A stretch of DNA of 58,374 nt, filler included, from Dugesia japonica (taxonomy: Eukaryota), in the NCBI GenBank assembly GCA_001938525.1. It is 5 parts of 5 records of this genome, joined end to end, with 100 filler letters (N's around TTAATTAATTAA, not from the genome) between each part and the next. Parts side by side here need not be neighbours in the genome. Positions count along the whole stretch, not along the records: positions 9,639 to 19,076 come from MQRL01643409.1; 4 more parts are not named here. One strand, written 5' to 3'. This document shows positions 5,321 through 55,469 of the stretch, one piece after another (within the stretch, counting starts at the first letter, position 1; each line of letters opens with the position of its first letter). The position numbers and the translations under genes were made by a program. The notes below the pieces were generated by a model. It searched no databases. It was not told the origin of the DNA and saw only the letters and a program-made list of their open reading frames with translations.

Positions 5321-7952
5321 TTTTTATTTTACTAAATGACTAAATTTTGCTTGCTTTTGGTTTCGAAAATCCTATAGTATTTTGAAGATTTTAGTTTTTT
5401 AGAATAACTAAATCCAGTTTTTCATTCTTAAATCAAAACTATTTTAAGAATACTCGTCATTTTGAACATAGAAACTTATATTGAGTGTTTTAGTGATCTC
5501 TAGATCACCCTTATTGTTCTCATCCATGGTTTTTATTATAACTTCCAAATCCAAAGTTACATTATAAGAGGGTACATTTTTATTTGTACATAAAGATCCC
5601 AGGACGTTTGTTCTGAGCAGGATTCCTTTGTTTCATTATTTTAAACCTTCATCCTAACTACATAATGGCTCATATTTATCTTTATATTTATAATTGGTAT
5701 GTTCCATTTGCATGCGTTTCGCACATTTATTACAAAATAATTTAAAATATGACATTTTTACAGACACATTTACTAATTACATTTAAAAATTAAATGTAAT
5801 GTTTCTTTTTTGATTCCGGGTAAACTAGGCCAATAATTTTTCTTTTTATATTGTCTTTCTTATATTTCTACAAGCTTCGCATGTATCTTGTTCTTCGTGA
5901 TACGAATGATTTACTGTTATAACTTCATCGATATTGATTCCAGAAAAATTATATTTTTTTTACAAATTTATTTCGTTGCCCAGAATTTAGAAATATACCT
6001 CAATTTCGGATAAAGCTTTTCAAATAGATCAATAAATAGTTCATCATTTTATTCATGAAATTAATAAAATATACCTATAATAAATCAATAAAACTTTACT
6101 CTTCGTATTCCGCGACTGGCATTTTTCTTTAAACGTTTCCTATTTAAATCCGATTTCTTTACTTCTCTAGATAACTATTTCTTTCTAAATAACCATTTCT
6201 TTTGTATACGAACTACAATGTATATGATTCACTCGATTTCCATTAATTTTGTCCATTATAGCATTCGCAAAAACAGTGCCACTCTTATACTTTGTTATAC
6301 AAGCAAAACAATAAATTGCATACTGCAAATGCATTTTAAATCTAAATAGATAATTTAAAGAAATAGTCCAGAATCTAATTCTTCAATTTTCTGAATCTTT
6401 TTTATAACTATTTGATAATTTAAATCAGTTATCACAGCAATTTCTTTGACTGATTTTGTTAAATAAAATTTTTTTTATTTTGTTGAATTTGTCTTCATTA
6501 AGCTAGGAATTGTTTTCTTCTTTTTTATTGACATGATTTTTCATTTTAAATAATGTAGNNNNNNNNNNNNNNNNNNNAAACTATTTTTTGTAAAATAGTT
6601 ATTTATGAAATGCAAATAATTTTTAATGAAATCCCTTGTATATGCTGCTAAATTCAAAACATAACTAAATTTATATGCTAATTGAATTGCTTAAATTAAG
6701 TAATGAGGAAGTTCATAAAAATACAACTACAAAATACCCATGCCCAGGTAATAATAGTGTAATAATAATGTAATGCTTATGAGGTAAAAAATAGTGAGTT
6801 AGATGTGAGTTTGAAAGGAAATTATTAACATATAAATAATATAAATTCGAAATAAAATAGTTATTAATTATATAGCTCGAATGCTAACTGTAATTACCTC
6901 AACAACTAGTAGTTCTATAATATTTTATTAATTGCACTATAAATTGCACCTCAATTTAATGGGTTCTTTTATGATTTAAGGGACAATTTACTATTGTGTA
7001 AAATAGCCTATGCGAATTTTAACCCTTTTTTTATGATGTCAATTTGTTCGCCTATTAACACGGGAGTGGTTACGAAGTATATTATTTCCCCACTGATTAT
7101 TTTTTTGTTTATTTATTAAAAATGTAAATTACTTTAATCAATCCGAAATAAATCGATAACAATAAATTACACAATCAAAATAATAAAGTTGAAATTATAT
7201 ATATATACATGAATTTTGTCTATTTGAATCCAGGTTCGCCTAGATTCAGGCAATAAAAATACAATTATAATTATCAACTAAAATAATGATAACTATTTAT
7301 ACTGCAAATAAAAATTGCAACTCAATATATTTCAAATTTAAATATAATTTTTTCAAAAAAATCTGTGCTTGAAAGTATTTTACAGGCATATAAAAAAACA
7401 TTAATAAAAATAGTAGTAAAAAACAGGAATTACTAAATTTTGCGAATATAAACAGTTTATTAGTATTATTTTCTTCTTCTAAATGAGGATACAAAGAAAT
7501 ATTTGTAGGAATAGTGATTATTATAGATTATTATAATTGTCGAAAAAATAATAAATTAAAATACAATATTCTATACAACCTATCCTACAAACTAACATAA
7601 AAATTTGTCATTCATATCAAAATTTTATGTCAAATAAATTGAATCTTGCTCTGTAAAAGCACGAGGCTGTAATATGTGGTTATAAGCTTGCATGTACATA
7701 TATTTCTTTATTTTTTTAATCAACAGTTAGTTATAAGGTAGAAATTTATTTATTGATATTGGAAAAATCTTATATGATAATTTATTGATTATTATTTCAA
7801 AGCTGTGTGATATAACTTATTGACTATTAATTTTGATCGATTAGTCGAATAAGATAATAATTTATTTATTTTTAATTTTATAATTAACAGTTATCAGGTA
7901 GAAATTTATTCATTGCTATGTGATTAGTCGTAGCCTACGACTCGCAGTTGAT

Positions 7953-8083
7953 AGTAGATGTAAAATGGCGTTCGCCGATCAAGGTTGTATACCTTCACTA
8001 ACCTTACTATGTAATCTAGGAAAAAATAATGTATAGTAAATAAAAATAAACCATTTCTCGGCGAATACCACTTTACATCTACT
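7953..8083. mobile_element. 131-bp MITE-like element with 26-bp TIRs beginning AGTAG
   Basis: Left AGTAGATGTAAAATGGCGTTCGCCGA versus reverse complement of the right end AGTAGATGTAAAGTGGTATTCGCCGA. No TSD evident. Confidence 0.65.
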
Positions 8084-8656
8084 TGGGTTATTGGTTGAAT
8101 TTTTGAAATTTGAAAAATATAATTAAATTAAAAAAATAATAAAATGAAAGAATATACTTGTAATAATTGTAAAGAAAAATTTGACGGGAAAGTAAAATAT
8201 ATGAACATTTAGATAGAAATCGTTTTGACTTAAACTATTGTAAAACTGTTTTAACTTATGAATGAGAATTTGGATGTTGTAAGAAAAAATTAAAGATTAG
8301 TAAAAATAAGTTTAAAGAACATCAAAAATTATGTCTTATTAATAAATTTAAACCTCCAGGTGTAGTCTACACAAAAGAGGAAATTGAAGAAGCTCATAAA
8401 TATAATGTTAAAAATTATATTTTTAAGAATAATTATCAATATTATAAAAAATAAAACAGTAGATTTTTGTTATTAATATTTTACTAATCATAATCGTAAT
8501 CAATTGGCTGGTTTTTTGAATTTTGAAAAATATAAAATTAAAATAAACATGGTTAACAAAAATTTAAACAGAAACACAACACCTAAAAAATANAAATGGA
8601 AATAAAAACATGATAACAAATAAAATTTAAATAAACATATTTTTTATTATTAGAAA

Positions 8657-9186
8657 ATGGAAACAAAAATTAATCTTGATAATAATATTAATTTTCAACT
8701 TTTATATTTGAAAAATGATGTTTTAAGAATTTCACCTTCATCTGGTTCAATTAATAATTTAATNNNNNNNNNNNNNNNNNNNNNNNNNNNNNNNNNNNNN
8801 NNNNNNNNNNNNNNNNNNNNNNNNNNNNNNNNNNNNNNNNNNNNNNNNNNNNNNNNNNNNNNNNNNNNNNNNNNNNNNNNNNNNNNNNNNNNNNNNNNNN
8901 NNNNNNNNNNNNNNNNNNNNNNNNNNNNNNNNNNNNNNNTCTTCAGATGTAGAAATAATTAATGATCCAGGAATTTCATCAACAATATTAAATTTTGTAA
9001 CAACTAGTTCAACCTATAAAAATATTCATGGAGAATTATCAGGATGAATTCCAGATACGAACAAAGGAGATTTAGATGTAGAAGGTCTTGATACCAATCT
9101 TGGTTTTTATAAAAAGAAATTTGAAGGTTATTTTCCTTTGAAAAATTTATTTGGTTTTTTACAATGTTACAACAGATTGTTATATA
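8657..9186 (+). pseudogene. Polinton major capsid protein, N-terminal fragment (second copy)
   Basis: METKINLDNNINFQ...INDPGISSTILNFVTTSSTYKNIHGELSG*IPDTNKGD...KKFEGYFPLKNLFGFLQCYNRLLY aligns directly with the MCP at 57357-58000. Contains a stop and a gap and is truncated by an insertion. Confidence 0.85.
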
Positions 9187-9383
9187 TGTTGGGTATTGCT
9201 ACTCAACCAAAGATATTTATGGTTCGTAAGTTTGTAGCTATAAAAAAAACAATGTATTGATAAATTTTTGGATGTTGATTTTTCCCTTGTATGCTTATAC
9301 AAATATTATATAAAATATATGATTAACTGAAATGCTTTATAAATAGTGTAATATAATGTAACTGGGTCCTTATATAAATAACA
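9187..9383. mobile_element. Putative solo LTR (197 bp) inserted in the capsid fragment
   Basis: TGTT...AACA ends, flanked by 5-bp ATATA (9182-9186 and 9384-9388), with an internal TATAAATA. The TSD is low-complexity. Confidence 0.5.
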
Positions 9384-9428
9384 ATATAACAACCTTTATA
9401 ATACAATCCTTTATTTTTGGTGTATAAC

Positions 9429-9538
9429 TAGAGGTTGCAAAAAATCCGGATTTTCAAAAACCGTGGTTCCTGGTTTTTAATTTTTAGAAACTTGCGGTTA
9501 CGTTTCGGTTTTCCAAACTTTTTTTGTAAAAAAATCAT
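9429..9538 (+). mobile_element. Possible hAT-like transposon end
   Basis: TAGAGGTTGCAAAAAATCCGG start followed by AAACCG/CGGTT subterminal motifs, then a gap. Confidence 0.3.
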
Positions 9539-9582
9539 NNNNNNNNNNNNNNNNNNNNNNNNNNNNNNNNNNNNNNNNNNNN

Positions 9583-9594
9583 TTAATTAATTAA
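9583..9594. other. Artificial contig-joining spacer TTAATTAATTAA (also at 19121, 34394, 48038)
   Basis: Identical 12-mer with stops in all frames, embedded in similar-length N runs four times. Confidence 0.95.
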
Positions 9595-9638
9595 NNNNNN
9601 NNNNNNNNNNNNNNNNNNNNNNNNNNNNNNNNNNNNNN

Positions 9639-9734
9639 ATTTCTTTTTTATGGTTGTTTTTATCGTTTTATTTCTTTCTTCGGTTTGTTCACCACTTAGT
9701 GGGTGTTTCACTTCAACAAATCGCTCCCCGTCTT
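9639..9734 (-). promoter_or_regulatory. Polypurine tract (about 9724-9734) and start of 3' LTR (TG at 9718-9717)
   Basis: Minus strand reads TTCCGGGACGGAATTTAAAC-AAGACGGGGAG-CGATT-TGTTGAAG, a Gypsy-type PPT/LTR junction. The LTR is cut by the contig end. Confidence 0.65.
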
Positions 9735-9988
9735 GTTTAAATTCCGTCCCGGAATTTGCCATAGCTCGTACCCATTGCAGAACTTTTTTACCCTAATAAA
9801 ACCGACAGATTAAGGTAATTTTAAGGTCATTACCTGTCCATTGATAACACATGCAAATAAAAATTACTACATTATACATTTACTACGGTATACATCGATA
9901 CAGGTATAGTTCAGTTATTTACCAAGATCAATTAGTTATTATAGTTTAATAGTTAATTACAGTTTATTTACATCGAGCTTCCCTTGTT

Positions 9989-11143
9989 CTAATCTACTTC
10001 TTCCATTATGCTGCTCGGGATGTTGGTTCGGGGTTCAGACCCATATTTACGTAGTATTTCTGTCACGATCGAATGAGACAGGTTTCTTTTGAATTGATTA
10101 TGAGTCAATATGGAGGTTTTACTGTGTAGCTGGTTGGGCGCTGCAGGACCGAGTTGTTTACTCTGAGGTTCTTGTATTACCAATGGTACCGGTTTTCTAG
10201 NNNNNNNNNNNNNNNNNNNNNNNNNNNNNACCTGATCAATTATTTGGTTTATCCATTCCGGTATTTTGGATTTAACTGGAGTCAAACGGGGTTCCTGGAT
10301 TATTAACGGTGCGAATTGCCTTGGTATGCTGGACATTATTGGTTGCCATTCTGGAGCGGCTGGATTTAGGGTTGATTTAGGGATGTTTATGAGCCTCATG
10401 CTGGTGGAGTGTGGTAGAGCTGGTGTGACGATTGGATGAGATATAGGCCGGAACTTACTATGAGTTTGTTGTAGCTCTTAAATGGTTGAGAATTGTTCGA
10501 TCAGGTGTTGTTGTTTCTCTGCGATTTCTTTCTCTCTTTCTTGGCAGAGTGTTCTTAATTCGATAATTTCCTGTTCTAGAGCTTCTATATATTGTTGAAA
10601 GAATTCGTTCTTTTGTTGACATTCCTGGATTATGGATTCGAACTCAAAGGACAATTTTTCGATCCCAGCACGTACACCTTCTCTATTAGCTAAACTTGTC
10701 AGGAGTTGGTTTTCGGTGGAGAGGTGGTTCTTTTCAAATTGGGTGTTGAATAATTCTAATTTTAATAGTTGGGTATTTTCCCGTTCTATCGTCAGTTGGA
10801 ATTCCAATTCTTTGCATTTTGGTTCTATGTTTTCGTATTTACTTTTCCATTCGCGGGCCTGTTTTATTGCGTTTATTTTTGCTCGGTTGGCATCAATGTT
10901 GCTTTTGATATACTTTTGATGGGACTTGCAGGAACGGTTCTTAATTTCTAACGCCTGGCACGCTTTTTCTACTTGATTTTCTAATTTGTTATTATACTCT
11001 TGCAATTGCAAATTTGTGAGGGCATTGATTTTGGAATCGAGTTTTCATTTTAGTAATTCTGGTATTGTGGTCAAGGTTTGAGTTTGGGCCTGCAGTACTT
11101 GGATCTCGTGGCGTAAGTGATTAATTAAATTTTCGTTATTCAT
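9989..11143 (-). pseudogene. Retroelement accessory protein: long coiled coil plus Pro-rich tail with PAM2-like motif
   Basis: ATG at 11143 and ORFs 10478-11011 and 9989-10399 share one frame, separated by single stops. Heptad-rich N-terminal half; STLNPAAPEWQP in the C-terminal part. Confidence 0.7.
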
Positions 11144-11450
11144 TTTCTAAAATTAGAGAGAGGAATTATTATGATAAAATTTTGACAATTATAATATATA
11201 TAATTATTTACATATTTCATGTTATTTATTTAGTAATTTGCCCCTAATATTATACATTATTTACATATTTTAATCCTATTCTTTAATGAAATTTTATTCC
11301 TAGTGCCCGTCGTTTGATTAATTTTCGACACATAGGGCATTCATTTAAATTTATAGCACAGTTATAACATGTTTTGAAGTTTCCGCAGAGCAGGAATACA
11401 ACCTCTATGGTTTCGGTAAGACAGATAACACAATCGTGATCAAGCAATAC

Positions 11451-12479
11451 TCATTCTGGCTCATATTTTTTCTGAGGTTTTACTGATTGATGTGATAGTT
11501 GATATAGTTCATAGGGAGAAACTAGTTCAGTACCTCTTTCGGCGACCATCTGTTTCAGTAATTGTTGGGTGGTGAGCAGGTTTAATTTTAAAATAGATGA
11601 TAGTCGATTGGCCTGTAATTCCACTGCCATTTCTATTCTATGTTTGGACATGTTCCATTCTATTCTGCATGTGGTTGGTCTTATTGCTCCTTGGTTGACT
11701 GGGTTTAGTCCGGAGCATTTTGCTTGATGGAATAATTCGGAGGGTAAATTTTCTACTCCTTTTAATATCAAAGTTTCCCGTTGGCAAACGATGCATTTGA
11801 CGACTCGGTCATTGACCCTTTGTACTACTTATAATCCATCCAACGCCCTGTCTTTCAAGCTGGATAAGTCTATGAATGTTTTCTCTCTTTCCTCGATATT
11901 CCATCTCAGATCTTCTGGGAATGATACTACGGCTAGATTCTTTATTACTTTACAATATAACTTTTTTGTGTTTCTCCATTCTTCCTCGATTTCTAATCTT
12001 TTACCTTTGATTACTGTCGTTTGATTATTTACGTCCAAATCCAATAGAAATGGACATGTCGGGAAACATCGTTTGTGTACCTTATTTGGTACTTCGTGGC
12101 TGCCCCATTTGTATAGGATACCTTGGCAGTATATACATTTTACTCTATCTGGTCGCTCTTTGGTACCGGCATAGTAGAATTCTGATTTAGCTATGGTTTC
12201 GATAAGACCATGTAAATATTTAGGTAATTGGATTAATGATTGTTTCCTGACACTTTCGTCCCGGTACTTCTCATCGAATACTTTCATTACGCTATAACAC
12301 ACCCTTCTTCTGATAAAATTTTCCGGTGCAGCTAAGGTGTTACGATAGTGCATTATTTGTTGAGTTATCGGATTTTGCTGGATTTCTGATCGTCCATGGC
12401 TCATAACAAATAATTCGATATCCGGATCTTCCAACAATAGTCTAGCTTCTTCTATTGATAACTCAAAATTGAATTCCAT
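11451..12479 (-). pseudogene. BIR-domain (inhibitor of apoptosis-like) protein: one canonical and one degenerate BIR, no RING
   Basis: IAKSEFYYAG...DRVKCIYC-x16-H-x6-CPF is the canonical Cx2Cx16Hx6C BIR signature. The frame continues through one TAA (11829-11831) into ORF 11451-11771, giving a second BIR-like unit. Confidence 0.88.
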
Positions 12480-12699
12480 TATCTAAAAAAGGTACATTAC
12501 ATAATATTGTTTTTTATATTATTCCCATACCGTTATTTATTTAGGTGGTTTTCCCTTTTCTGACGTATATACCCATAAACATGCATATATATAAATATAA
12601 ATATTTTATTTGTTTATTTACTTATTTATTTGTTTATTCCTTTTTTATCTAGTTTTATCTATTTTATAAATTTTTTTTTTAACTTCCTCTCTCTTTGAT

Positions 12700-13374
12700 T
12701 TAGACGAAACTGACTGGGTTGTGGACACTCCGGGTCTTGAGTGTCTTAATTTCCCCTTTTTGTGAATTTACTATTTTTTTAAGGTATTCAATTTCTTTTA
12801 TCCGTTCGGACATTAGATCATGTTGTTTGGCTACCAACTCCATTGTATAGTTTTGCTTCTCTGCAATGTTTTCTAGCATTCGTCGATTTTCCACTAGTTG
12901 CTGACGACACATGAGGGTTTCTGCGTGGAGATTTTTGTTCTGAAGTTGTAGGATTTTATTTTTGAATTCCAGTTTGCACCACTCTAATGGTTTTGTTGTT
13001 ATTAAAGTTTGTATTAGTTGATTTTGATTTTGCTCCAGTTTTTCTAAACGTTGTTGAGTCCAGTGGGTTTGTGTCTTAGCACTATTCCACAATTCGCCCA
13101 TTGCTACGTTATGATTTTGCCAGATTTCGTTTATTGTTGTCTGTGTTAATAATTTGTCTGTACAGTTATTTGATTGCGAGAAATTTCTAGTAGGAGATGG
13201 GCTTGCATTAATCTGGGAATACCTGACTTCGTTTTCGGTGGTTATCTCTTTTCGATTCATTTCTAAATGTGAAACATTAATTAACTTCGTTGTTGTTTTT
13301 GTTCTATTTACATATTTGATAAGTATATTTATTTTTACATTATTTACAGGTGCTTTCCCCATATTTAACATACC
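12700..13374 (-). CDS. Retroelement accessory coiled-coil protein
   Basis: Open frame 12700-13536 with a Q/E/K/L-rich heptad C-terminal half. The 5' overlap with the env-like ORF is probably non-coding, so the true start is uncertain. Confidence 0.6.
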   Translation of the reverse strand, partial: GMLNMGKAPVNNVKINILIKYVNRTKTTTKLINVSHLEMNRKEITTENEVRYSQINASPSPTRNFSQSNNCTDKLLTQTTINEIWQNHNVAMGELWNSAKTQTHWTQQRLEKLEQNQNQLIQTLITTKPLEWCKLEFKNKILQLQNKNLHAETLMCRQQLVENRRMLENIAEKQNYTMELVAKQHDLMSERIKEIEYLKKIVNSQKGEIKTLKTRSVHNPVSFV

Positions 13375-14975
13375 ATTATACCCGGTGCCTGATAGTATCC
13401 GGCCCCGTGCACTGGTAATGTGTATGGTGGGTTTTCCAGTAAAATTCCATCGTAACTTGGTGGGGCGATAGGCAATTGCCGCTCCCTCTTTCGGTGGTGG
13501 GGTTTCTTTTTCTTTGGTTTTGAAACACATAGGCAAATAATACTAATTGATAATATTGCAATAATAACTCCTCCGATTCCTAACACATATCCGAGTTCTT
13601 GACTTCTTGTTAGTGGTAATGTGGTCGTAATCCTTATAGGGTCCATCGTAATTGTTTCTATACCTTCCTGGTGAATCGGTCTTGGCTCCATTTTGCGTAT
13701 ATTTGACATCCAGTCGTTCAGAAACTCCGCTCTTCTTACTTCCTTCCCCAGGTTTTCCGGTGTGGTGGTTGTTTGGATTTCGGTAGTAGTTGATAATTTG
13801 GGTATAGGTGTTGACATTTTGGTAATTTGCTTTTGTTTTCCTTGGGTTTTCGTTTTGGTTATTATATCCTGATTAATAACGGTGATGAACTTGAATCCGC
13901 TATATCCTCTGCTATCGAATTTCCATCCCCACTCATAGAGACTCTTGAGTGTATGTACTACTAATCTTTCTACGTTTTCTCTGAATTGCATGTGATATAT
14001 ATCCTTGTCCCTTTTTACCTGTAGAGGGTATGGTCCTGGTTGCCAATATGGTTTCCATCCTTTAAATTCTTGATTGGATATGGAGAGTATCCCATGACCT
14101 TGAATAATTGTTATGCTCTTCTGACCTAGATCTCTGCCTTTCTTATTCCACACAACCGCTCTGTACAACATGTGCTGCCATAACATGGTATGGTAAAGGT
14201 ATTCCTTCTTTGGACATATTTTAGTTAGCTCTCCTTCGTTATTTGTGGTTATCCATTCTTTGTACTTGAGGTTACTCTCCGAATAGGATAGTACAAGGTT
14301 CATTTCTTGGAGTTGTTCGATTTCGTAGTTTGCTTCATAGACCAATGGGCTCTTTTCATTTTTTAACGTTGCGTCCCAGAATTTTTCTACCAGCCAATTA
14401 CGGGCGTTAATTGACAATAGATTTACTTCNNNTGGTCCTTGACTGAAGAGTTGTATGATAATTTTCTTTTCTGCTTGATGTAGTTTAATCAACGTGCTTT
14501 TTTGGCTTTTGATTGCCGGATTTAGAGTTAGTTGCCCATAACTATAAAGTGCTTGGGTTCTTTGTTCCCTCCGCAGCCCGATATGACTTATTGTTACGGC
14601 GTGTAATTTCTTTTCCTTGATGAATATCCCATGTTCCGTTAGCACTGGTTCGTTTATCTGGCATTCTTGTCCACTGATTCTTTTTAGGATTATCATTATG
14701 GTTGCCAGTATGATTTGTCCACTGTGCATCCTATTCTGAGATACCGCTCGCGTTTGTGGTGTCGCCAAAGTAGGTAATGAGAGTCCTACTAAAATTATTC
14801 CGGTGATCCCATATAGCATTAGTGATATGGGAAGTCCTCTTTCCATATTTCTGATTAACCTCATTGTCAACCATATTAATATGCCATAGTCCCAATTTAT
14901 GTTGATTACTGCCCATAACATTAGAGATAATCTCATTATTATTTCTGCCGTATTCCTCTGTTCCTTTTCTTGCAA
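13365..14975 (-). CDS. Env-like membrane protein
   Basis: 536 aa at the env position. N-terminal hydrophobic segments, ectodomain, Thr-rich stalk, TM helix LGYVLGIGGVIIAILSISIICLCV, KPKKKK stop-transfer, cytoplasmic PPSY. No known fusogen family recognised. Confidence 0.7.
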   Translation of the reverse strand: MQEKEQRNTAEIIMRLSLMLWAVININWDYGILIWLTMRLIRNMERGLPISLMLYGITGIILVGLSLPTLATPQTRAVSQNRMHSGQIILATIMIILKRISGQECQINEPVLTEHGIFIKEKKLHAVTISHIGLRREQRTQALYSYGQLTLNPAIKSQKSTLIKLHQAEKKIIIQLFSQGPXEVNLLSINARNWLVEKFWDATLKNEKSPLVYEANYEIEQLQEMNLVLSYSESNLKYKEWITTNNEGELTKICPKKEYLYHTMLWQHMLYRAVVWNKKGRDLGQKSITIIQGHGILSISNQEFKGWKPYWQPGPYPLQVKRDKDIYHMQFRENVERLVVHTLKSLYEWGWKFDSRGYSGFKFITVINQDIITKTKTQGKQKQITKMSTPIPKLSTTTEIQTTTTPENLGKEVRRAEFLNDWMSNIRKMEPRPIHQEGIETITMDPIRITTTLPLTRSQELGYVLGIGGVIIAILSISIICLCVSKPKKKKPHHRKRERQLPIAPPSYDGILLENPPYTLPVHGAGYYQAPGIMVC

Positions 14976-15065
14976 TAGTTTCTATTTTGGTTTACTTGGT
15001 TCTATTTGCTCCGCTTCATCCGATATCCAGATCATTTTCCTTTTCTTTGCCCTTTTAGATGTTGT

Positions 15066-16498
15066 TCAGACTATTTGCTTTCTTCCCCCATCTTCTTGAC
15101 CTTGTACCTTTTTCTTTGTTGACTCTCTTTGTTTTTTCCATTTTCCGATGAGTTTTGTGATATCCGTCCTTGATGTTCTCTTTATCCTTTGCAATTCTAA
15201 TTCTGTATTTCCTGAATTTGCGGTAGGTAGACCCGTTTCTTGTTTTATTAAATTCTCTTTTTCCGGTATTAATCCTTCCCCGTTTTCTTCAAACTCAGCG
15301 TCCTCGCTGAGACTGTTCTTCTTCATCACTGTTTCCTTACCCCCTGGTAAAGGAGTTATTAGTGCTTTACTGAGCACCGTCATGGCTTGCTGTGATCGTA
15401 ATGGATAGCTATGTGATATATTTAGTTCCAAGCTTTCCGACTTACGTGGCCGACCTGGCCCTTTCCGGTCGGTCGAGGTGATCTCAGTGCTTGGTGCTGG
15501 TGTGGCTATTTCTGATGACGCCGCCTTCTTACACAGGTTGGCGTGGTATATTTTAGGTTTCTCCAATAAGTTTCCCTTTTTCCGAACCTTGAGATTAGTT
15601 TCTGTTACTTCAATCACCTCATACGGTCCTTGCCATGGTCTTTTTAATTTCGAAGTAGTGCCGACACAGATGTCTGGCAGATTGATTAATACCATGTCGC
15701 CTTTTTTAAAGGAACTTTTCATTGCTGATTTATCATGTAGATCCTTGTAGCTTTCCTGGTAGAAACCTACATTCTCCTTTGCCTGTTTCCAGATTTTCTG
15801 CATGGTTTCCTTGAAATTTGCCGCAAAATCCGTTTCGTCTTGATATTGTGTTATCGGTGGCTGAAATTCTAAGTCCATAGGCATGTTGCACTCCTTACCA
15901 TACATTAGACCGAATGGCGTATATTTAGTTGCCGGATGTACACTCATCCGATACGCGAATAAGCAAAGTTGAATATGTTTATCCCAATTATTTTGTTCNN
16001 NNNNNNNNNNNNNNNNNNNNNNNNNNNNNNNNNNNNNNTTAAATCGTTCCGTTAACCCATCCGTTTGTGGGTGGTAAGGTGAGGTTTGTAATTGGTGAAT
16101 TTTTAGGAAACTTGATACTTCGGCCAAAATGTTGCTCATAAAGTTCTTCCCTTGATCCGTCAATATTCTCTTAGGTGTACCATATCTACTGAAAATTTTT
16201 CGCACCAGGATATCTGCGATGATGGTTGCTTTCTGATTTTTCATAGGGAATGCTTCTGGAAATTTAGATAAGTAATCCATTATGGTGAGGATGTAGATAT
16301 TCCCGCTTAACGTGGGTGGTAGTGGTCCTACCACATCCATAGCAATGATTTCCATTGGTGCTGCTGGTACTGCAAGGGGTTTTAGTAGGGCTTTTACTCT
16401 TTTCCCTGTTCCTCTTCTGGCTGCACATATTTGACATTTAGCGATCCACTCTTTCACCGACTCCGTCATGTGTGGCCAGTAATATTTCTGTCTTAGTT
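15066..16498 (-). CDS. pol: Gypsy integrase with GPY/F motif and C-terminal extension
   Basis: YYWP..CxxC zinc-binding end, MDVVGPLP, TDQGKNF, SPYHPQTDGLTERF (DDE), WQGPYEV, then PGRPRK and HSYPLRS. Confidence 0.95.
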
Positions 16499-16747
16499 NN
16501 NNNNNNNNNNNNNNNNNNNNNNNNNNNNNNNNNNNNNNNNNNNNNNNNNNNNNNNNNNNNNNNNNNNNNNNNNNNNNNNNNNNNNNNNNNNNNNNNNNNN
16601 NNNNNNNNNNNNNNNNNNNNNNNNNNNNNNNNNNNNNNNNNNNTTCTTTAAATGCTCTTTCATCTTGGGCTCACATTCTAATTTTTCTAAATTGTAATTT
16701 TCCATATATTTCGTGATGGTCTTTATCTCCTCGTCGTCTATTTGCTC

Positions 16748-18826
16748 CTATTTCAATCCGTCGAAATTTCTATCTTCGGCTAAAATAAAATATACCATGC
16801 CTACTTTCTTTTCCAACAATTCGCGTAAGGTAAACGTTTCTGTATCTTTTGGTGTGTTGTCTGTAGCTTCTGGTCCGCCGATTCTGGACAGGCAATCGGC
16901 ATTGGAGTTTGCCTTACCGGTTTTAAATTTTAATAGGGGACAATAATCTTGCATTGCCAATTGCCACTTGGCCATTCTATTCCATCGCAGTGGTTTCTGN
17001 NNNNNNNNNNNNNNNNNNNNNNNNNNNNNNNNNNNNNNNNNNNNNNNNNNNNNNNNNNNNNNNNNNNNNTGTTTAGTGGCTTTTACAATAGCCATTATTT
17101 CTCGTTCTGTGGTACTGTAGTTTAATTCTGCTCCTTGAAATTTCTTGCTGAAATACGCTATTACTCTTTCTCTCCTTTGTTCATCCAATTGACTTAATAC
17201 TGCGCCCATCGCGTATCCACTAGCGTCGGTGGCTAGTATAAATGGCTTTTTAAAATCTGGGTGTACCAGAATTGGTGCTGTCAGCAATTTATCTCGTAAT
17301 GTTTCGAATGCCTGTTGTTGTTCCGGCCCCCATATGAATGCAGTGTCTTGTCTGACCAATTCTTGCATAGGTTTTGCGATTTTTGCAAAGTCCTTGATAA
17401 ATTTACGATAATAGTTTGCGAGCCCGAGAAATTCTTGTATTTTAAGCACACAATTTGGTGGTGCTAGATTTCGTATCTTCTCTGTGTTTCGCGGATCTGG
17501 TTCTTTCTCTTTATCAGATATGAGGTGGCCTAAATATGTCACCTTATTCTTGGCCCACTCGCATTTGGTAGGTTTCAGCTTTAAATTCCATTTACGCAAT
17601 CTCACGAACACACTTCGTAAATCATTGAGATTTCCTTCGAATGTTAGGGAGTAGATTAACAGATCATCGATATAGGCCATACATTGAGATATGCCGTGTG
17701 TCACGTAATTCATCATTCGTTGAAATGAAGCTGGGGCATTGGTAAGTCCAAATGGCATACGGATAAACTGATACAAATCCTTGCCTGTAGAAAAGGCTGT
17801 TTTTTCTCTGTCTTCTGGTTTGATCTTTATTTGCCAGTAACCGCTTCGTAAATCTAGTGTGGTGAATATTTTAGCATTACACACTAGTTGCAACAGTTCA
17901 TTGATATCCGGTAATGGGTATGTATCTTTCTTAGTCTGGGCATTTAATCTTCTGTAATCGATACAAAATCTTTGCGTCCCATCTTTTTTATCTACTAACA
18001 CCACTGGCGACTGCCAGGGTGAGCAGCTGGGTTCTATAACGCCGATTTTCACTAATTTGGCTGTTTCCTTATTTGCGAATTCTTTTTTCTCCACTGTCAT
18101 GGCATATGGTTTTTGTTTACATGGGGTTTCGTCTGTCAGTGGAATGGTATGCATGGTTGCGGTGCACATGCCTAATTCCTCATCGGTCCATGCAAAAATA
18201 TCTCGAAATTCCTCTAGTAATTGCAGTATCGCTTGTTTCTGATTCTCCGTCAAAGTCTCGGTTTCTACTTTAAATGTCCGATCGATTTCTGGTTCGGCGG
18301 CTACTTCGTCCCTTACGGCGGGTTCTGGTTCGATGGGTGTTAATGTGCCCATCCTGGAATTTGGCTTGATTTTGATGTCTTTTTCCGTGAAGTTAATCAG
18401 GCTGACTGGTATTTCCCCACTTTTATTTACGGTGGTTATTCCTCCTGCCGTAGGTAGTTCGTACTGGTGTGCAAATCCGTCATAAGGTTCAAAATAACTA
18501 TCTCCTTCATAAGCACTTTTGGTGCTGACCACACAATATACTTGACATCTACTTGGCACCAAAATTTCCTCTGTGGTAAATACCTCGTGATCCTTCACGT
18601 GGGTATATCCTTCCAATGATTGTAATCGTAATGTTGAGAAATTCAATATTCCATTTTTCATCAATACGGGAAGAATGTCTGTTCCTAAGATGCATTGTCC
18701 CATCATTTCTACTACAATCATATTATGTCTAATTTTATTGTCTTGGTACTCGACTTCACAGGTCAATTCCCCAAAAATTTTTAGACTACCACCATTAGCT
18801 ACATCTGCTGTAGTGTTCGTAGGCAT
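16748..18826 (-). CDS. pol: Gypsy Pol: protease C-terminus, reverse transcriptase, RNase H
   Basis: ILGTD; SPWQSPVVLVDKKDG, RFCIDYRRLN, LDLRSGYWQI, RMPFGLTNAPASFQ, YIDD; RNase H TDASG...NYSTTERE...ADCLSR. Confidence 0.97.
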   Translation of the reverse strand: MPTNTTADVANGGSLKIFGELTCEVEYQDNKIRHNMIVVEMMGQCILGTDILPVLMKNGILNFSTLRLQSLEGYTHVKDHEVFTTEEILVPSRCQVYCVVSTKSAYEGDSYFEPYDGFAHQYELPTAGGITTVNKSGEIPVSLINFTEKDIKIKPNSRMGTLTPIEPEPAVRDEVAAEPEIDRTFKVETETLTENQKQAILQLLEEFRDIFAWTDEELGMCTATMHTIPLTDETPCKQKPYAMTVEKKEFANKETAKLVKIGVIEPSCSPWQSPVVLVDKKDGTQRFCIDYRRLNAQTKKDTYPLPDINELLQLVCNAKIFTTLDLRSGYWQIKIKPEDREKTAFSTGKDLYQFIRMPFGLTNAPASFQRMMNYVTHGISQCMAYIDDLLIYSLTFEGNLNDLRSVFVRLRKWNLKLKPTKCEWAKNKVTYLGHLISDKEKEPDPRNTEKIRNLAPPNCVLKIQEFLGLANYYRKFIKDFAKIAKPMQELVRQDTAFIWGPEQQQAFETLRDKLLTAPILVHPDFKKPFILATDASGYAMGAVLSQLDEQRRERVIAYFSKKFQGAELNYSTTEREIMAIVKATKXXXXXXXXXXXXXXXXXXXXXXXXQKPLRWNRMAKWQLAMQDYCPLLKFKTGKANSNADCLSRIGGPEATDNTPKDTETFTLRELLEKKVGMVYFILAEDRNFDGLK

Positions 18827-18835
18827 TATGTTTTT

Positions 18836-19063
18836 TTATTCGGTTATTGCAATTTCATCGATAGATAACAGTGATATGGTGTCTCCGGTATCCACTAGAG
18901 CGGTTATGGGTCGACCGTTAATTTTAATGATAATAGTTAATACGGGTCCACCATTGAGACCTGCGCATACTACATTCGATGAGATATTACCGGCATTTGT
19001 TTGTGTTTTGCTTTTCCATCTGGGTTCTCTCTCCTGGAACCGTATCCAGTCATCCTTTATCAT
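18836..19063 (-). pseudogene. pol: Retropepsin active-site segment, frameshifted from the rest of Pol
   Basis: INGRPITALVDTG catalytic motif. The frameshift lies at an A-run near 18830-18838. Confidence 0.85.
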
Positions 19064-20189
19064 GGTGGTTGTATTGNNNNNNNNNNNNNNNNNNNNNNNN
19101 NNNNNNNNNNNNNNNNNNNNTTAATTAATTAANNNNNNNNNNNNNNNNNNNNNNNNNNNNNNNNNNNNNNNNNNNNAAATGGATAAATCTGATACATCAT
19201 TGAATAATTATTATTGCTGATTTAGCAAAAAATGAATCAATTTGATCCATAATTATTATTATTATTATTTTCTCTTAAAAATTATTTATATATTTACAAG
19301 AAAACCTTTTTTAGAAGTTAAATTGATTAATACGAGAACTCCTACACATAGAATTGTATTATATTTAATAATTTTTTGTCGAAAGTAATTCATTCTTTGA
19401 ATATTTTATTGAGGTAATAATTTTTTTTAACCCTCTCTTTTGATATATATAATTATAATAAGCTACATAATTAATTTATACGGGATATAAGTTACTTCTA
19501 CTTGTTGGGTGGAATCGACATAAGTTTTTACCCTTTTAAATATTTATAAGACTTATTGAGATAAATACTGTTACCTTCAACGATGTATAATAAGTAATAA
19601 AACCATAATAATTTATTTATGTCATTTTATCCATTCGAACATCCAACAAAATTATATTCGATACATTATGTACTTATTATAGTGACAAAATATTTTCAAA
19701 TTACCGAAAACTGAATTTTGAATAAATGCTATATGGAAATTTTATAAATTGCCAAAAAAGGAATTGGAATACCGTTCCAATACGCTGGGTTGAATACAGA
19801 CATTTATTTTTATTTGATTTAACTGTACGATTTCTAATATTATGTGACAATCCTTTTTCAATATATTTTTATTTACAATATTATTTTACCACAAACGTAA
19901 ATTGTTTATGAAATTTTCACTGAGAATTTTATGATAATAATTTATAATAACAATTAATGTAAATTTTAATTGAATGGAAAATTCTACAATCCATAATAAA
20001 AATTTTAGGTACTTGTCTTGAAAATTCATCAAAATAATCATTTAATTTAAATTTAATTGTGTTATTGATATTCAGAAAGTCAAGTTATTGTAGCATTGTT
20101 TATTCTTGCAAATTTCAACCAAAATGAATTTTTCGAAATTAATCCAGCTGGTGCATGATACGCATAGTAGCATTTCGTTTTTTTAATAG

Positions 20190-20640
20190 TGTGGCATTCT
20201 TTGAATGAAAGACTTTGTTCTAACAGTCATCAAAAGACCCTTTCCATAACAGATAAAGCGAGATGGCGTTGCCGTAGATGAGAATGTCATCTGGATATTG
20301 CTATCAAAAATGGTTCTTGGTTCCAAAAAGTTCATCATCATGTTATTCTCTTTATTTATTATTAGTCACATGAAATGGCGTCGATGTATTTTTGTGAACG
20401 TGAACTACGCATTTCCGAATCAACTGTGGTGGAATACAATAACTACTTGAAAGAAGTTTGTGCAGCGTTTATCATCGTGAGCTGTTCAACAGCAGTGAGT
20501 GTTTGGTGGTATATACCGTGAAACTCGGGATTGATTCTTATTTGAAGTACTTGACAGAAGTTCGGCAACGTTACTTCTCGTTATAATAGATTGTATCAGA
20601 CCTGGATCTATCATCATAAGTGATGTGGAGAAGCTAATCA
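20190..20640 (+). pseudogene. Merlin (IS1595/ISXO2-like) transposase remnant
   Basis: Across frameshifts: WRCRR*EC..IKNGSWF, STVVEYNNYLKEVC, QQ*VFGGIYRETRD*FLFEVLDRSSATLL..IIDCIRPGSIIISD. The first catalytic Asp segment appears deleted. Confidence 0.8.
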
Positions 20641-21288
20641 GAGATAGCGAATTTATGTCGTAATTATACTCACATGACGACATATTTAAATTGATTAAAG
20701 TTAATTTGGTATTCACGTTGAATAGTTTTAAAATTTTGTTTCTTTATTAAATTGCAATTTTCACGATATGATTAAATCGATCGAAGTTAATTTAACATCC
20801 ACTTCAAAGAGTTCATTTTTAATTTTTGTATTATTTAAATTAATCTGTTGAGAAACGGTGTGGAGTTAATAAGCAATACCGATCTAAGTATNTTCAAATA
20901 ATAATAATTGTATCCTAACATCTAGTCTAAACTCCGTTAAATCTTTAGGTTTCGTTAAAATTTAATTGCTTAGGGAAATTCTTGTAAAAACTCCGTTGGG
21001 GTTCGAGCAAGGAAGAAGTTTATTTCTTCTCTCGTTCGAATTTCAGGAGTGGGGACGAAAAAACGATAGGCCATAGGCCGAACAATAGTTGCCTTTAATG
21101 AATTATTAATAAATTTTGTATTTTCCTATCTCTATTGATTTTATCATCNCAGATGTACAAACTAAAAGGAGATTATGCATGAACAAAATCTAAGAAATAT
21201 CAATGACTTGAAATGAAATTAATTAAAAAGTACAAATCGAAAAACAAAATCAAAATTTACAATTTTCTGATAATTGGAATTATCGACT

Positions 21289-23700
21289 AGTAGGAGGATA
21301 CTAGCGCACGATACCACCATGTGTGCGAACCCCCCCCCATTAATGATGTAATTTGTGCGATTATCTGTAATTTGATTGTTTAATCTATGATGTAATTACA
21401 TCANCGGAAATTTATCCATCAATTAAATTTATTATGTAATTTTTAATTTTTAATTTTTTCAGGCTTTTTAGGCGGTAAAAAAATTTTCCTGCGGTTTTAG
21501 TTGGCAAAAAATTTTCCTGCGGTTTTAGTTGGCAAGAAATTTTCAAGGCTTTTTAAGCAGCAATTTTAGGATTTTTAAGCTGGAGTATTTTTTAGGCTTT
21601 TTAGGTGGCAAAAATTTTTTCAAGTTTTTTTTAGGTTTGGAATTTATTCGGTGAAATCGAATGAGGTCAATTTTTGATTGGTTCAGGTGAATTTGGTTGA
21701 CAATTTGCTCAGTGAGGTCGAATGAGGTCAATTTTCGGTTGGTTCAGGTGAATTTAGTCCAACATTTCCTCGGGATTGCTCGGTTAGGATAATTTTTTTT
21801 TGGGTGATTTGGTCGAATATTTTCTCGGGATCGAGCGGTTTGGGTAATTTTTGTGTGATTTGGTCAATTATTTTCTTAGTAATGGTTAATTTGGTTCATT
21901 TTTGTGCGATTTGGATGAAATTTCCCTCGGGAATAGTCAATTTGGGTCAGTTTTTGTACAATTTGGTCAATTATTTACTCGGTTTGGGTAATGTTGGTCA
22001 ATTAATTACTAGATATGGACGAACTTGGTTAATTATTTGCTCACAAGGGTAATTTTTAGGTGAATTTGGTCAATTATTTCCTTGGTAATGGTTAACTTGA
22101 TTAATTTTTTGGGTGAATTTGGTTAATTATTTAATCGGGATTGATTAGTTAGGGTAATTTTAGGGAAATTCGGTCAATTTGGGTCAGTTTTGGACGATTT
22201 GGTCAAATATTTGCTCACAGTGGTCAGATTTTGGTTGACAGTGCTCAGATTTTGGATGATTCGGTCAATTATTTTCTCAGTATGGATAAACTTAGTGGTT
22301 GGTTTTCGGTGGTTTTTGGAAAATGGTCAATTATTTGCTCACAAGGGTAATTTTTAGGTGAATTCGATCAATTATTTCCTCGGGTATGGTTAATTTGGGT
22401 CAGTTTAGGACAATTTTGTCAATTGTTTACCAAGTTTAGGTAATATTGGTTAATTACTTACTCACAAGGGACAGTTTAAGGTGAATTTGAGTGATCATTT
22501 TCTCGGGTTTAGTCAGCTTTGGTTGAATTTTAAGGAAATTCATTATTAAAGTCAAATTTGTTTAAATTTTAAAGTTTTTAAAAATTTTTAAGGGAATGTT
22601 TTATAGGAATTCTGGCAAACCTTTCATGTTGTTTAAATAATATTAAAATTTAAAATTTCTTGAATGAAATTTTCATGGGAGTCTGGGTGAACAGTCTAAA
22701 TTTTTGAAAAAATATGTTCTATATCTCAGATTTCATAGATTTTTATACCAAACTGCTGAGAATTTTACGGCGATCCTTTTACACAAACAAACATTTTTCG
22801 AAAACATTTTCCTTCTCAAATATGTTAAGAAAGTTTCTATTCGATAGAGAACGTTTCGTTGATTCCAAATATGTTAACCTAAAATNGCCAAAGTTAATAC
22901 TCGATGAAATAAATGGGATTTTGTGGTGAAAAATCTGAAATTTTAAATTTTTGTACTCAATTTTTTCTGTGAACATAACTCGTATGGTTTCAAATTTAGT
23001 ATTATTTCACTCAGGAGGTAAATGTGACTGTGCAAAGTTTAAATATCGTCTGGAGAAAAATGCTTCCTAACGAATATGTAAAACTGACCTCCCGGATTAT
23101 GGTAAGGAACCATCCATTAAGGACGTCCCTAAAAAATAGCACTTTTTGACATCCCCTCCCTCTTGCCACTTGTCCATTTCTAGGGCCCCCTGTTGTCCTT
23201 ATGTGCACCTTTGTGGAGACCCCCTCCCCCCATTCCGAGAAGACGTCCTTAATGGATGGTCCCTAAATTCTTCGAAAACATAACAAGTACCTCAAAATTT
23301 ATCGACTTCTATAGGAACTTTTACGATGAGTACGAATAACGCAGTTAAAAATCATCAAACCTCAAAGATAAAAAGTTATATTGAAAAAACAAGTACTTTA
23401 TTTAGAGTCACCAAGGAACATAAAAATATGATAATTTATTCGGTAAGGTCAATTTTGGGTAGTTTTTTAGATGAATTTAGATGAAATTTTACTCTTCACC
23501 TGTCATCAATTATCAGAACTCTTAACTAATGCTAAGACTTCAGAACTCTGAACTCTGTACACATAATGTTAATACTCTATACTCTGCCCACTAGATTTCA
23601 GTTATCAGTGCTCTGCTTACAGTACACTGATTTTTAGTTATCATTGGTGTTCTCACTTTTTACAAGTCTTTACTTTTGACTATCCCTTCAAATCGTCAGT
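21289..23700 (+). mobile_element. Polinton-like left terminus and long subterminal arm with degenerate tandem repeats
   Basis: Starts AGTAGGAGGATACTAGCGCA. TTGGTCAATTATTT-type repeat array at 21650-22500. Inverted homology to about 29750-31689. Confidence 0.55.
23106..23263. mobile_element. PIF/Harbinger-type MITE (158 bp)
   Basis: 22-bp TIRs GG(A/G)ACCATCCATTAAGGACGTC with one mismatch, flanked by TAA target duplication. Confidence 0.85.
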
Positions 23701-34800: not shown

Positions 34801-35335
34801 AACTTAGTGTAAATCCTTCGTCAAGTTTATAAATACAAGTTTATGTAATACAAAATAATACAAATAGATTACAANNNNNNNNNNNNNNNNNNNNNNNNNN
34901 NNNNNNNNNNNNNNNNNNNNNNNNACGAGATATAAACTTCATCAGTATGTGGAATTATCTTTTTAACTTTACCTGGATATTTACAAATTAATTCTTTAAA
35001 AAACAAATGATTATCGTAACCAGATGCATTGTGAAAATAAAAAGATATAAATAAAATTTTTATTGATTTATCTTGTAAATTACATTTTGAATGAGAATAT
35101 CTTCTTAATTCCCCATTGAAATGATAGTGATCTAAAACTAGATTTTCAGTTATTGGTTTGTCACAATATCCACATTTTAAGTGAGCTTTCTCACTTTCCT
35201 CAAGTTTCGGAACTTCACCTTAAAATCTTTCGATTAATTTATTTTCTTTAATATCTTGTGTAACTTAGTGTAAATCCTTCGTCAAGTTTATAAATACAAG
35301 TTTATGTAATACAAAATAATACAAATAGATTACAA
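34801..35335. repeat. 74-bp identical direct repeat (34801-34874 and 35262-35335)
   Basis: AACTTAGTGTAAATCCTTCGTCAAG...TAGATTACAA occurs twice. The first copy runs into a gap. Confidence 0.85.
34925..35260 (-). pseudogene. Protein-primed PolB fragment (second copy)
   Basis: GEVPKLEESEKAHLKCGYCDK...VLDHYHFNGELRRYSHSKCNL...FHNASGYDNHLFFKEL...KIIPHTDEVYIS aligns with 49335-49630. Confidence 0.88.
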
Positions 35336-37604: not shown

Positions 37605-38057
37605 TTAATATACATAAGTCTTAATCATATTTACTTCATCATAAAAATCTAAATTCTTCAAATCAGTTAATACTATTTTCCTTGAATGGAAAACATTCAC
37701 ACACAGAGAATTAAATTTAATTAATCGAAGACCAGGAAATATTTCCGGTTCATACATACAATTTGTATTTTCAGCCGATTTCTGTAAATTTATTGTCATC
37801 TTCAAGCAAGCTGTCACTGTCAATGATTGTATTTCATCAACAAATATTTTGAATGGAAATTCCTTTCTGTCTAATGGCTTTTTACAACCCATTATTCTAT
37901 ATTTTTTACTTGGAAATATGATTATTGTATACTCTAGATACTTTAATACACATTGTTTCAGCTTATAACCAAATCGAAGACCACCTAAGTTTTCTGTCGT
38001 ATGTCCTTTATAGTTTATATTCAATAACATTACAAAAAAACAGTGACTTATTTCCAT
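37605..38057 (-). CDS. Minimal, divergent TATA-binding-protein-like protein
   Basis: Repeat 1 end TIIIFPSKKYRIMG. Repeat 2 IQSLTVT...INLQK...MYEPEIFPGLRL...VNVFHSRKIVLTDLK, compare TBP YEPELFPGL...IF.SGK.VLTGAK. 150 aa, intronless. Confidence 0.8.
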   Translation of the reverse strand: MEISHCFFVMLLNINYKGHTTENLGGLRFGYKLKQCVLKYLEYTIIIFPSKKYRIMGCKKPLDRKEFPFKIFVDEIQSLTVTACLKMTINLQKSAENTNCMYEPEIFPGLRLIKFNSLCVNVFHSRKIVLTDLKNLDFYDEVNMIKTYVY

Positions 38058-43800: not shown

Positions 43801-44556
43801 CAAATTGGTAAGGTCCAAAGGTTAGATCGATAGTTTCCGCATGACTGAACTTACCAGCAAAAAAGAAATCGTTCCGAAGCTTGCCTTTACTCTCACGATA
43901 TAAAGTCGAACAATTTCTTTAACGTGTCGTGATATGTGATGAAATATATATTCGTTTCGATAATCGTAGGGGTTCATCTTTAGTTTGATAAACGTGAATT
44001 ACCAAAACAGAGTTTAAAGCTAAAATTCATCAAAAAAGATAATATTATCTGTTTGGTGGTCTAGCGCTGATAGAACAGCTTTTTAATAACCGGTCAATAC
44101 ATTACGGATGTCTACTGCAACCAATGGGACAACATGGTGAGATTGCTTAAGATTAAGCAGCCGAGATTAGTCATTAGAGACAGGCTAATTTTCTTGCAAG
44201 ACAACGCTCGACATCATGTTAACCTACCAACGCTACTAAAACTGCTGGGTTTTGAATTGGAAACTATCATTCACTGTATTCACCAGACATTGTTCCAACA
44301 CTATCATTTATTCCAGGCATTAGAAAACTTCTTAGTGGAAATATTATTGGAATCTGAAGAGACTGCAAAAAACTTCTTTCGTGATTTTAATTGCTACTAT
44401 CACCAGACATCGCTGCTTAAATAATCAAGTGGCAATTAAGATGTCAAAATTATGTCATTAGTTTTGATGCATATTCGAATAAATGTATTTTTGCTTGTTA
44501 AATAATAATCCGAAATTTTGATTAAAAATTCGACATTTCATACTTAATAATCTAAT
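43801..44556 (+). mobile_element. Mariner transposon, 5'-truncated and decayed
   Basis: GKVQRLDR*FPHD (WVPHEL motif), VVICDE, FLQDNARHH, YSPDIVP, YHLFQAL. TIR-like 3' end AAAATTCGACATTTCATACTTAATAATCTAA. Confidence 0.9.
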
Positions 44557-45876: not shown

Positions 45877-46090
45877 AAAAAAGGAGTTGATACAAACTCA
45901 GAATGAAAATAAAATTTTAAAGAAAAAAATAGAAAAAATAAAAAATATAAGTTTTTTTATTATTAATATTTTAGTAATCGTAATCATAATCGATTGGTTT
46001 TTGAAAATATACTTATAATAATTGTAAAGTAAAGTAATGGAAAGTAAAATGGAAAAGTAAAGTAAAGTAAGTATTTAATTTATTAATAAA

Positions 46091-46255
46091 ATGTCTTCTA
46101 ATATACAAAGATTTTTACAACCAGGTTCAACTGAAGAAGAATTTTTTAATTTATTAAAAAGTTATAATTTTAAAGAAAATTCTGTTTTAGCTTTTGCAAA
46201 GCAAAATAATGTAAATGAGAAAACAGTAAGAAAATATTTAAGGGAATTAAATTAA
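46091..46255 (+). CDS. Small HTH-like protein (54 aa; may continue by frameshift into a Q/P/N-rich tail)
   Basis: MSSNIQ...SVLAFAKQNNVNEKTVRKYLRELN fits an HTH pattern. Confidence 0.45.
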   Translation: MSSNIQRFLQPGSTEEEFFNLLKSYNFKENSVLAFAKQNNVNEKTVRKYLRELN

Positions 46256-46574
46256 AAGTACAGTTACTAAAACTTTAGAAAGGGGTGTTAATGGACAATA
46301 TAAATTTGTCTTTAAACCATAACTGCCAATCCCAAAGATTCCAATTCAAAATTCCATTAGACCCATTCAAAATCAAAATCACAAAGGGTCCCATCCTATT
46401 AGACCAGTTCAAATTCAAAATCCCAACGTGTCCCATCAAATTCAAAATCAAGAAACACAAGAAGTTCAAAAACCTATTATAGATTATCGAAAAATGAATA
46501 ATGATGACTTTATAAAATGTATGGAAAAAACTGTTCGCAGAAAATTATAGAATTTTGTTTTTTGAGTAAAGAAA

Positions 46575-48093: not shown

Positions 48094-48166
48094 ATTTTAA
48101 TGAAATCTCAAATGCAATCAATGGTTAAGTCCAACAATTATTCTCACAATAATTGTAATTATACAA
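48094..48166 (+). mobile_element. Double-hairpin mini-element copy 5 (3' part, contig start)
   Basis: ATTTTAATGAAATCTCAAATGCAATCAATGGTTAAGTCCAACAATTATTCTCACAATAATTGTAATTATA directly after the gap. Confidence 0.85.
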
Positions 48167-51696: not shown

Positions 51697-51729
51697 AAAA
51701 AGATTGTGGGCGCGCGCACAAATTATTTA

Positions 51730-52999: not shown

Positions 53000-53119
53000 A
53001 TCTGAATTAATTTTATTTAATTTTTCAGGAGAACAATAACTAGATAAATTATTAATCTCTTTTGTTAGTTTTGTAATTTTTCTAATCTCTTGTTTAACTT
53101 GTATATTTTTTAAATCGGT

Positions 53120-55467: not shown

Positions 55468-55469
55468 TT

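Follow-up and report, generated by a model that had tools for sequence, protein, structure and literature searches.

Introduction

In belpaoviruses such as Cer13 and Atlas virus of Ancylostoma ceylanicum, the envelope protein (Env) is encoded C-terminally in one frame with Pol, Atlas virus and other hookworm belpaoviruses being described with Gag, Pol and Env in a single frame, and the ectodomain is preceded by hydrophobic segments and predicted cleavage sites (PMC9094657). Here, we analyze a retroelement of the planarian Dugesia japonica in which Pol and an env-like membrane protein are arranged in a similar way. The window, i.e., the whole stretch of DNA that was analyzed, comprises 58,374 nucleotides (nt) including filler and consists of five joined parts of assembly GCA_001938525.1; the element is of the long terminal repeat (LTR) type, occupies the minus strand from about 19.1 to 9.9 kb, and belongs, as a decayed copy, to a multi-copy Ty3/gypsy family. 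The general picture that emerged is that the reading frame of the family most likely runs open from the integrase (IN) into the env-like gene. Just as in the belpaoviruses, the ectodomain follows hydrophobic segments and candidate cleavage sites, and Env shares one open frame with Pol at the family level, site by site, the Gag part being invisible. Belpaoviruses differ in belonging to Bel/Pao, in the YVDN motif of their reverse transcriptase (RT) and in their phlebovirus-like class II Gn/Gc, whereas the planarian element has a Ty3-like RT with a YIDD active-site motif, an orphan ectodomain with two cysteines, a Thr-rich stalk and three downstream accessory genes.

Several other systems share part of this architecture. 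The giant Burro elements of planarians are gypsy-like, contain a dUTPase-like segment between protease (PR) and RT, carry BIR (and RING) cargo and have env in frame with other domains (PMC6431247, PMC13465017); a stem-cell-protecting role of the Burro apoptosis inhibitor (IAP) has been reported second-hand (PMC13465017). In Burro, however, an F-like env is placed between gag and pol, within an ORF1 (open reading frame 1) of about 4900 aa that also holds the BIR (PMC6431247), whereas env follows the integrase here and is not F-like, and the IAP is encoded by a separate downstream ORF; this comparison is by description only. The metazoan errantiviruses surveyed by Chary and Hayashi (2026) resemble the element in being multi-copy and in encoding a type I membrane protein behind a Ty3/gypsy pol. 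Every one of their Envs, however, belongs either to the F type, with furin site and fusion peptide, or to the gB type, with cysteine bridges, and the survey was seeded with such baits. Its main text contains neither 'polyprotein' nor 'fused' nor 'in frame', and its supplements may list fused elements. In the bdelloid rotifer LTR elements Vesta, Juno and TelKA, a dUTPase is likewise found between PR and RT, and some clades have an orphan ORF3 with a transmembrane (TM) segment; these ORF3s measure 210–230 aa and are separate ORFs, and the passages considered mention neither IAP nor PPxY (PMC5408684). Finally, the copia element SIRE1 of soybean has an env-like ORF in the pol frame, but one stop is kept and suppressed (PMC2829016), whereas the family described here has no shared stop. 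In the literature outside Repbase and subscription journals, we found no Ty3/gypsy element in which the integrase is followed by a fused orphan Env, and the family may already be catalogued.

The junction between integrase and the env-like gene

The following two features meet at the junction:

15069..16496, minus strand: integrase with H2C2, core and GPY motif, whose C-terminal tail is long and charged (Pfam rve E 2e-14, Integrase_H2C2 E 2e-8)
14937..15068, minus strand: IN-env junction, both stops of which are private to this copy (coding-like GC of 0.356, purine-rich, without acceptor-like site)

In this copy, the integrase frame is closed by TGA at 15066-15068, a second stop (TAG) is located at 14982-14984, and the stop-free stretch 13365-14981 (538 codons) shares its frame with both, which confirms the stops given in the initial annotation. 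That annotation had also placed an env-like start at 14975. The codon there is TTG (Leu); the first ATG lies at 14936, directly ahead of a hydrophobic leader, and opens a protein of 523 aa.

In order to clarify the state of the junction in sister copies, contigs from four DNA runs of three studies (4143, 2809, 2464 and 753 contigs per run) were aligned to positions 13300-15450 with a likeness threshold of 80%. One of the four runs is labelled as another organism and one may be the source of the stretch itself; the evidence drawn from the contigs comprises 40 of 596 difference rows and 32 of 10186 pieces, and contig depth is not taken as copy number. At 14984, a sense codon is present in all depth in all four runs (64, 49, 42 and 27 contigs). 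Because the stop at 14982-14984 is unseen in every run, it reflects either an error of the assembly or a rare variant that was dropped. At 15068, a sense codon accounts for 99.4, 99.8, 100 and 100% of depth (12, 14, 14 and 4 contigs). When the six listed high-share differences in 14937-15130 were checked codon by codon, none of them created a new stop. Eight of the nine indel rows within the IN-env frame belong to net frame-keeping pairs and one is unpaired, all occurring in only one or two contigs; one of the pairs adjoins an env codon that is N in the assembly (14430-14432) and its partner is missing in one run. In contrast, insertions of 1-2 nt account for 58-70% of depth 9 nt past the env stop (13356). 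Among the 40 listed differences, no codon position is favoured (13/11/16, p 0.62), which is what neutral decay of a single copy would produce. The copy as a whole contains eight in-frame stops in 2772 codons, the six away from the junction lying at 18836, 16748, 11829, 11451, 11045 and 10478 (in pol, the IAP gene and the last ORF), and with random placement two of eight stops fall at most 28 codons apart in 45% of cases.

No AT-rich spacer, poly(A) signal or splice acceptor was found at the junction, unlike at all three downstream ORFs; an acceptor-like site with 9/14 pyrimidines is present within the IN tail at 15344. Stops fixed in all copies were not encountered in the contigs of the four DNA runs, nor was an acceptor at the junction of this copy, and the Pol-Env fusion is well supported at the family level. 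The polyprotein proposed in the initial annotation is borne out, both stops being absent from nearly all other copies and the junction being free of acceptor and spacer, but to call it 'ancestral' was too weak, as present-day copies commonly have the frame open.

Features of the env-like protein

Five parts can be distinguished in the env-like protein:

14685..14930, minus strand: hydrophobic leader with segments h1, h2 and h3 (hydropathy)
13887..14669, minus strand: orphan ectodomain of 261 aa with two cysteines and without N-glycosylation sequon (searches and folds)
13587..13886, minus strand: Thr-rich stalk with 19 Thr per 100 residues (351-450)
13512..13586, minus strand: C-terminal TM helix with two juxtamembrane cysteines (KD19 2.78)
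13365..13511, minus strand: cytosolic tail with a polybasic stretch, PPSYDGI (13443-13463), NPPY (13422-13433) and the stop (sequence motifs)

The three N-terminal hydrophobic segments claimed earlier are present, but they are not equivalent. Segment h1 (residues 3-28) is weak (KD19 1.38) and split by polar residues, h2 (residues 34-54, KD19 1.95) is the sole leader segment of full membrane-spanning length, and h3 (residues 74-84, KD11 2.69) is short and signal-like and lies ahead of QECQ. In five listed contigs of 392-493 nt, which stem from more distant relatives, the h1-h2 block (14773-14945) is the sole aligned part, and its conservation would fit a conserved role in processing. Contigs are fewer where the ectodomain begins (14300-14740); this hints at faster divergence, of which contig depth is no proof. 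The stalk, which appears mucin-like, and the single C-terminal TM segment were both found as annotated.

In the tail, PPSYDGI is indeed a PPxY motif, whereas NPPY is an NPxY and not a second PPxY. The tail therefore has PPxYxxPhi, with an overlapping YxxPhi, and NPxY. At the composition of the element, 0.005 PPxY motifs are expected by chance per 48-aa tail, and the only listed high-share difference within PPSYDGI and NPPY is synonymous. We take PPxYxxPhi to resemble the PY motif of ENaC, and NPxY presumably resembles the internalisation signals of the LDL receptor. PPxY is described as a ligand of Nedd4-like ligases and, when present in Gag and matrix proteins, as a late domain; NS3 of bluetongue virus has PSAP and PPxY, and the PPxY of herpes simplex virus (HSV) UL56 is without a shown role in envelopment (PMC7995964). 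The simplest reading with which the tail motifs fit is endocytic and endosomal sorting, and a budding role of the tail is possible; the overlapping YxxPhi and the NPxY close by agree with trafficking just as well as with a late domain.

Relatives and envelope class

The env-like protein found no relative in a clustered index of 5.8 billion proteins, at near, longer or shorter lengths; at longer lengths, this negative carries little weight and does not count against a fusion. Residues 170-523 have no relative among 1.84 billion representatives (HMMER), none for the protein was detected in viral contigs or metagenome contigs, and the search against PDB sequences returned a single chance match (E 1.1). 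The following candidates were rejected: Pfam DUF3492 (E 0.02-0.05), the result from the ESM Atlas, where one query was blank and the best match of the other (0.86) was bacterial and of low recognition, and a match of env to a gypsy locus of fungal type, L007 (E 0.007), which lies on the opposite strand. Single-sequence AlphaFold models, calculated with no alignment, were uninformative (pLDDT 37.6 and 29.3), the C-terminal TM helix being the only confident part of a model.

The F/gypsy Env families are included in Pfam, and none of them matched the env-like protein at E up to 10, nor was one found in PDB. A strict furin site (R-X-K/R-R) is absent; a minimal REQR at residue 123 has no hydrophobic peak after it, and a decayed copy could have lost the motif. 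The mark of gB-type Envs, several conserved cysteine bridges, is not seen with two cysteines in the ectodomain. As defined in PMC13524379, the marks of both F-type and gB-type Envs are thus lacking. With few cysteines and without strict furin site, heptad signal or Pfam match, the ectodomain appears unlike F-type errantivirus Env, in agreement with the initial annotation, and sequence features likewise support a distinction from gB-type Env. Its role as a fusogen is putative, both folds having failed.

Downstream genes and their spacers

Three further ORFs follow env:

12700..13260, minus strand: accessory ORF A, an orphan of 186 aa (acceptor-like site at 13263 after an AT-rich spacer)
11283..12479, minus strand: IAP-like ORF with BIR, a second, degenerate BIR-like stretch and RING; two stops in this copy (Pfam BIR E 1.5e-12, zf-C3HC4_3 E 2e-12)
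9989..11143, minus strand: accessory ORF C, an orphan of 384 codons with a helical N-half and a Pro-rich C-half, interrupted by two stops in this copy (acceptor-like site at 11147)

The upstream extension of the ORF A frame is non-coding, because the insertions of 1-2 nt at 13356 are common. PDB matches of the IAP-like ORF are NAIP/cIAP, its acceptor-like site lies at 12483, and a scan of viral contigs for the IAP gave no match. Heptad scores provide no indication of a coiled coil in ORF A or ORF C, being not separated from those of shuffles (50/500 and 96/500, respectively). Each of the three ORFs is preceded by a spacer of 98-220 nt with a GC content of 0.17-0.24 and AATAAA, and the spacers end in TTTAG 2-3 nt ahead of the ATG (13263, 12483 and 11147). 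Ranked by pyrimidine content, two of these three acceptor-like sites take places 1 and 2 among 258 YAG sites, and the pattern TTTAG-(0-3 nt)-ATG occurs at three sites on the sense strand, all at the three downstream ATGs. Such operon-like spacers could be sites of spliced-leader trans-splicing. Acceptor-like spacers at the three ORFs and none at the IN-env junction mean that the element appears able to express separate genes, by cis-splicing or spliced-leader trans-splicing, and appears not to do so for env. Four raw RNA runs yielded 50 reads in all, none of them at 99% likeness and none on env.

The sequence TGTAAATA occurs five times on the minus strand (13348, 13312, 11265, 11212 and 9972), always in non-coding spacers or the 3' end; a looser pattern of it has a background of 0.3 per kb. 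We assume that it resembles a Pumilio or CFIm site.

The remainder of the element and of the window

Upstream of the integrase and at the 3' end, the following features were recognized:

18839..19075, minus strand: N-half of an aspartic protease with DTG motif (Pfam RVP E 3e-4)
18350..18496, minus strand: degenerate dUTPase-like segment between PR and RT (Pfam dUTPase E 0.0013, 18.9 bits, cut-off of 22 not reached)
17072..17992, minus strand: RT (YIDD) and RNase H (Pfam RVT_1 E 4e-33, RT_RNaseH_2 E 1e-33)
9972..9990, minus strand: purine-rich tract followed by TG, a possible, unconfirmed polypurine tract and 3' LTR start (sequence alone)

The Ty3/gypsy domain order PR-RT-RNase H-IN is present in the Pfam scan, and a PDB sequence search, made with no tree, gave Ty3 RT as the top solved relative of the RT (E 2e-78; retroviral RT E 1e-39). 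The dUTPase-like segment has a weak tblastn match at the corresponding position of two fungal-type gypsy loci (L005 and L007). GC content amounts to 0.34-0.40 within the element compared to 0.18-0.33 in its AT-rich, repeat-laden, animal-like surroundings. The DNA upstream of the protease, including any gag and the 5' LTR, is lost at the gap 19077-19176, and no paired LTRs were found within 7000-23000, the 5' part of the element being missing at that gap. Scans with integrase and RT retrieved 13 loci with 34-60% identity, and none of the 13 has a TM-bearing frame after the integrase. The gaps, among them those at 9583-9594 and 19121-19132, contain a linker with stops in six frames flanked by runs of 44 N; joins across gaps, including the one at the 5' end of the element, are therefore artificial.

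Elsewhere in the window, Polinton/adintovirus-like remains are located at 46000-58374, 8666-9186 and 34869-35219, and two of their genes can be delimited:

56049-56681: A32 packaging ATPase
56685-57041: double jelly roll capsid

They also include polymerase-like pieces near 49.7-50.6 kb (by eye) and an endonuclease VII-like piece, and an inverted partial copy lies at 8.7-9.2 kb. An intron-less TBP-like fragment at 37608-38057 (minus strand, Pfam TBP E 6e-10) perhaps comes from a large DNA element. A degenerate 51-bp tandem array occupies 21600-22530 and has an inverted relative at 1-450. A Tc1/mariner-like transposase fragment was seen by eye at 44074-44424 (plus strand, QDNA motif), with no Pfam match at E 0.01.

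Discussion

We consider it probable (roughly 0.6) that in this family a single polyprotein comprises PR-RT-RNase H-IN and the orphan membrane protein, which is of type I, and that cleavage of the polyprotein sets free a surface protein. A full-length RNA would give rise to the Pol-Env polyprotein, and the hydrophobic leader would act as an internal signal to the endoplasmic reticulum, where an odd number of crossings (one or three) would leave the ectodomain in the lumen and the basic tail in the cytosol. The protease of the element would free the integrase, while host signal peptidase would free the N-terminus of the ectodomain, candidate sites by eye being after residue 59 or 89. PPxYxxPhi and NPxY may recruit Nedd4-family ligases and endocytic adaptors, and the tail may direct the protein to endosomes or multivesicular bodies, from which particles could bud or where they could acquire it; the released surface protein would then likely coat or route the particle. 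The three downstream genes would be expressed from separately spliced mRNAs, in cis or in trans, and the IAP may keep the producing cell alive.

A number of observations weigh against this interpretation. At the background rate of the copy, two stops in a given stretch of 44 codons have a p of 0.004, which alone would favour real stops. None of the listed contigs (32 of 10186 pieces) spans both stops, and openness is therefore inferred for each site separately and not from one molecule; two diverged contigs, which cover the junction partly, show 2-3 gaps, and with 40 of 596 difference rows listed, minority stops could be hidden. Moreover, an open frame is no proof that Env is made solely as a fusion. 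Regarding the protein itself, the leader topology is ambiguous (one or three crossings), the ectodomain has no sequons where 2.4 are expected (p 0.09), a heptad signal is absent (its score is reached by 459 of 500 shuffles), and neither a fold nor a relative ties the ectodomain to viral entry proteins. Taken alone, the number of TTTAG-ATG sites is weak evidence, as the antisense strand also has three and 20 of 1000 shuffles reach three, so that position alone is informative. Lastly, gag is not visible.

A more far-reaching proposal is put forward tentatively: the element may represent a third envelope type in Ty3/gypsy, a Cys-poor orphan entry protein, neither F nor gB, that forms the tail of a Pol-Env polyprotein and has a late domain of its own. 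The element itself would be complex-retrovirus-like and would express an IAP and two more accessory proteins from spliced or trans-spliced mRNAs.

We regard it as doubtful that the frame is fused and the membrane protein is nevertheless a host-modulating accessory protein that recruits Nedd4-family ligases to targets at the cell surface or in endosomes and, together with the IAP, forms a ubiquitin and cell-survival kit. The lack of fusogen marks and sequons, the mucin-like stalk, the three sorting motifs and a BIR+RING ligase encoded two genes away would all agree with such a function, and for the PPxY of HSV UL56 no role in envelopment has been shown (PMC7995964). However, the slot directly after the integrase is the usual position of env, fusion to Pol couples the amount of the protein to particle production, and an ectodomain of 260 aa would seem to exceed the needs of a ligase adaptor. 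It is improbable that the open frame is incidental and Env is made mainly from an mRNA of its own, via an internal promoter or a weak acceptor, with the start at ATG 14936. This ATG is suitably placed ahead of the leader, the site at 15344 could serve as the acceptor, and errantivirus Env normally has its own ORF (PMC6431247), but the junction lacks the spacer, poly(A) signal and acceptor that mark the three downstream ORFs, and an incidental open frame would gather stops and frameshifts, none of which occurs at high share in the family. Real stops passed by read-through, the other product envisaged in the initial annotation, for which the shared frame, the short distance and the precedent of SIRE1 (PMC2829016) could be cited, are largely refuted, because the family frame is open with no stop to pass (both stops are missing from 99-100% of family depth) and two serial stops would make read-through very inefficient.

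An orphan envelope fused to Pol would be invisible to a survey seeded with F-like and gB-like proteins, as was the broadest of those on invertebrate gypsy envelopes considered here (Chary and Hayashi 2026). If the protein mediates spread, it would provide Ty3/gypsy elements with a new envelope type and with an expression strategy known from belpaoviruses, and a late-domain-like motif would be shown in an envelope tail. The downstream IAP parallels that of Burro and suggests that anti-apoptotic genes have been captured repeatedly by such elements.

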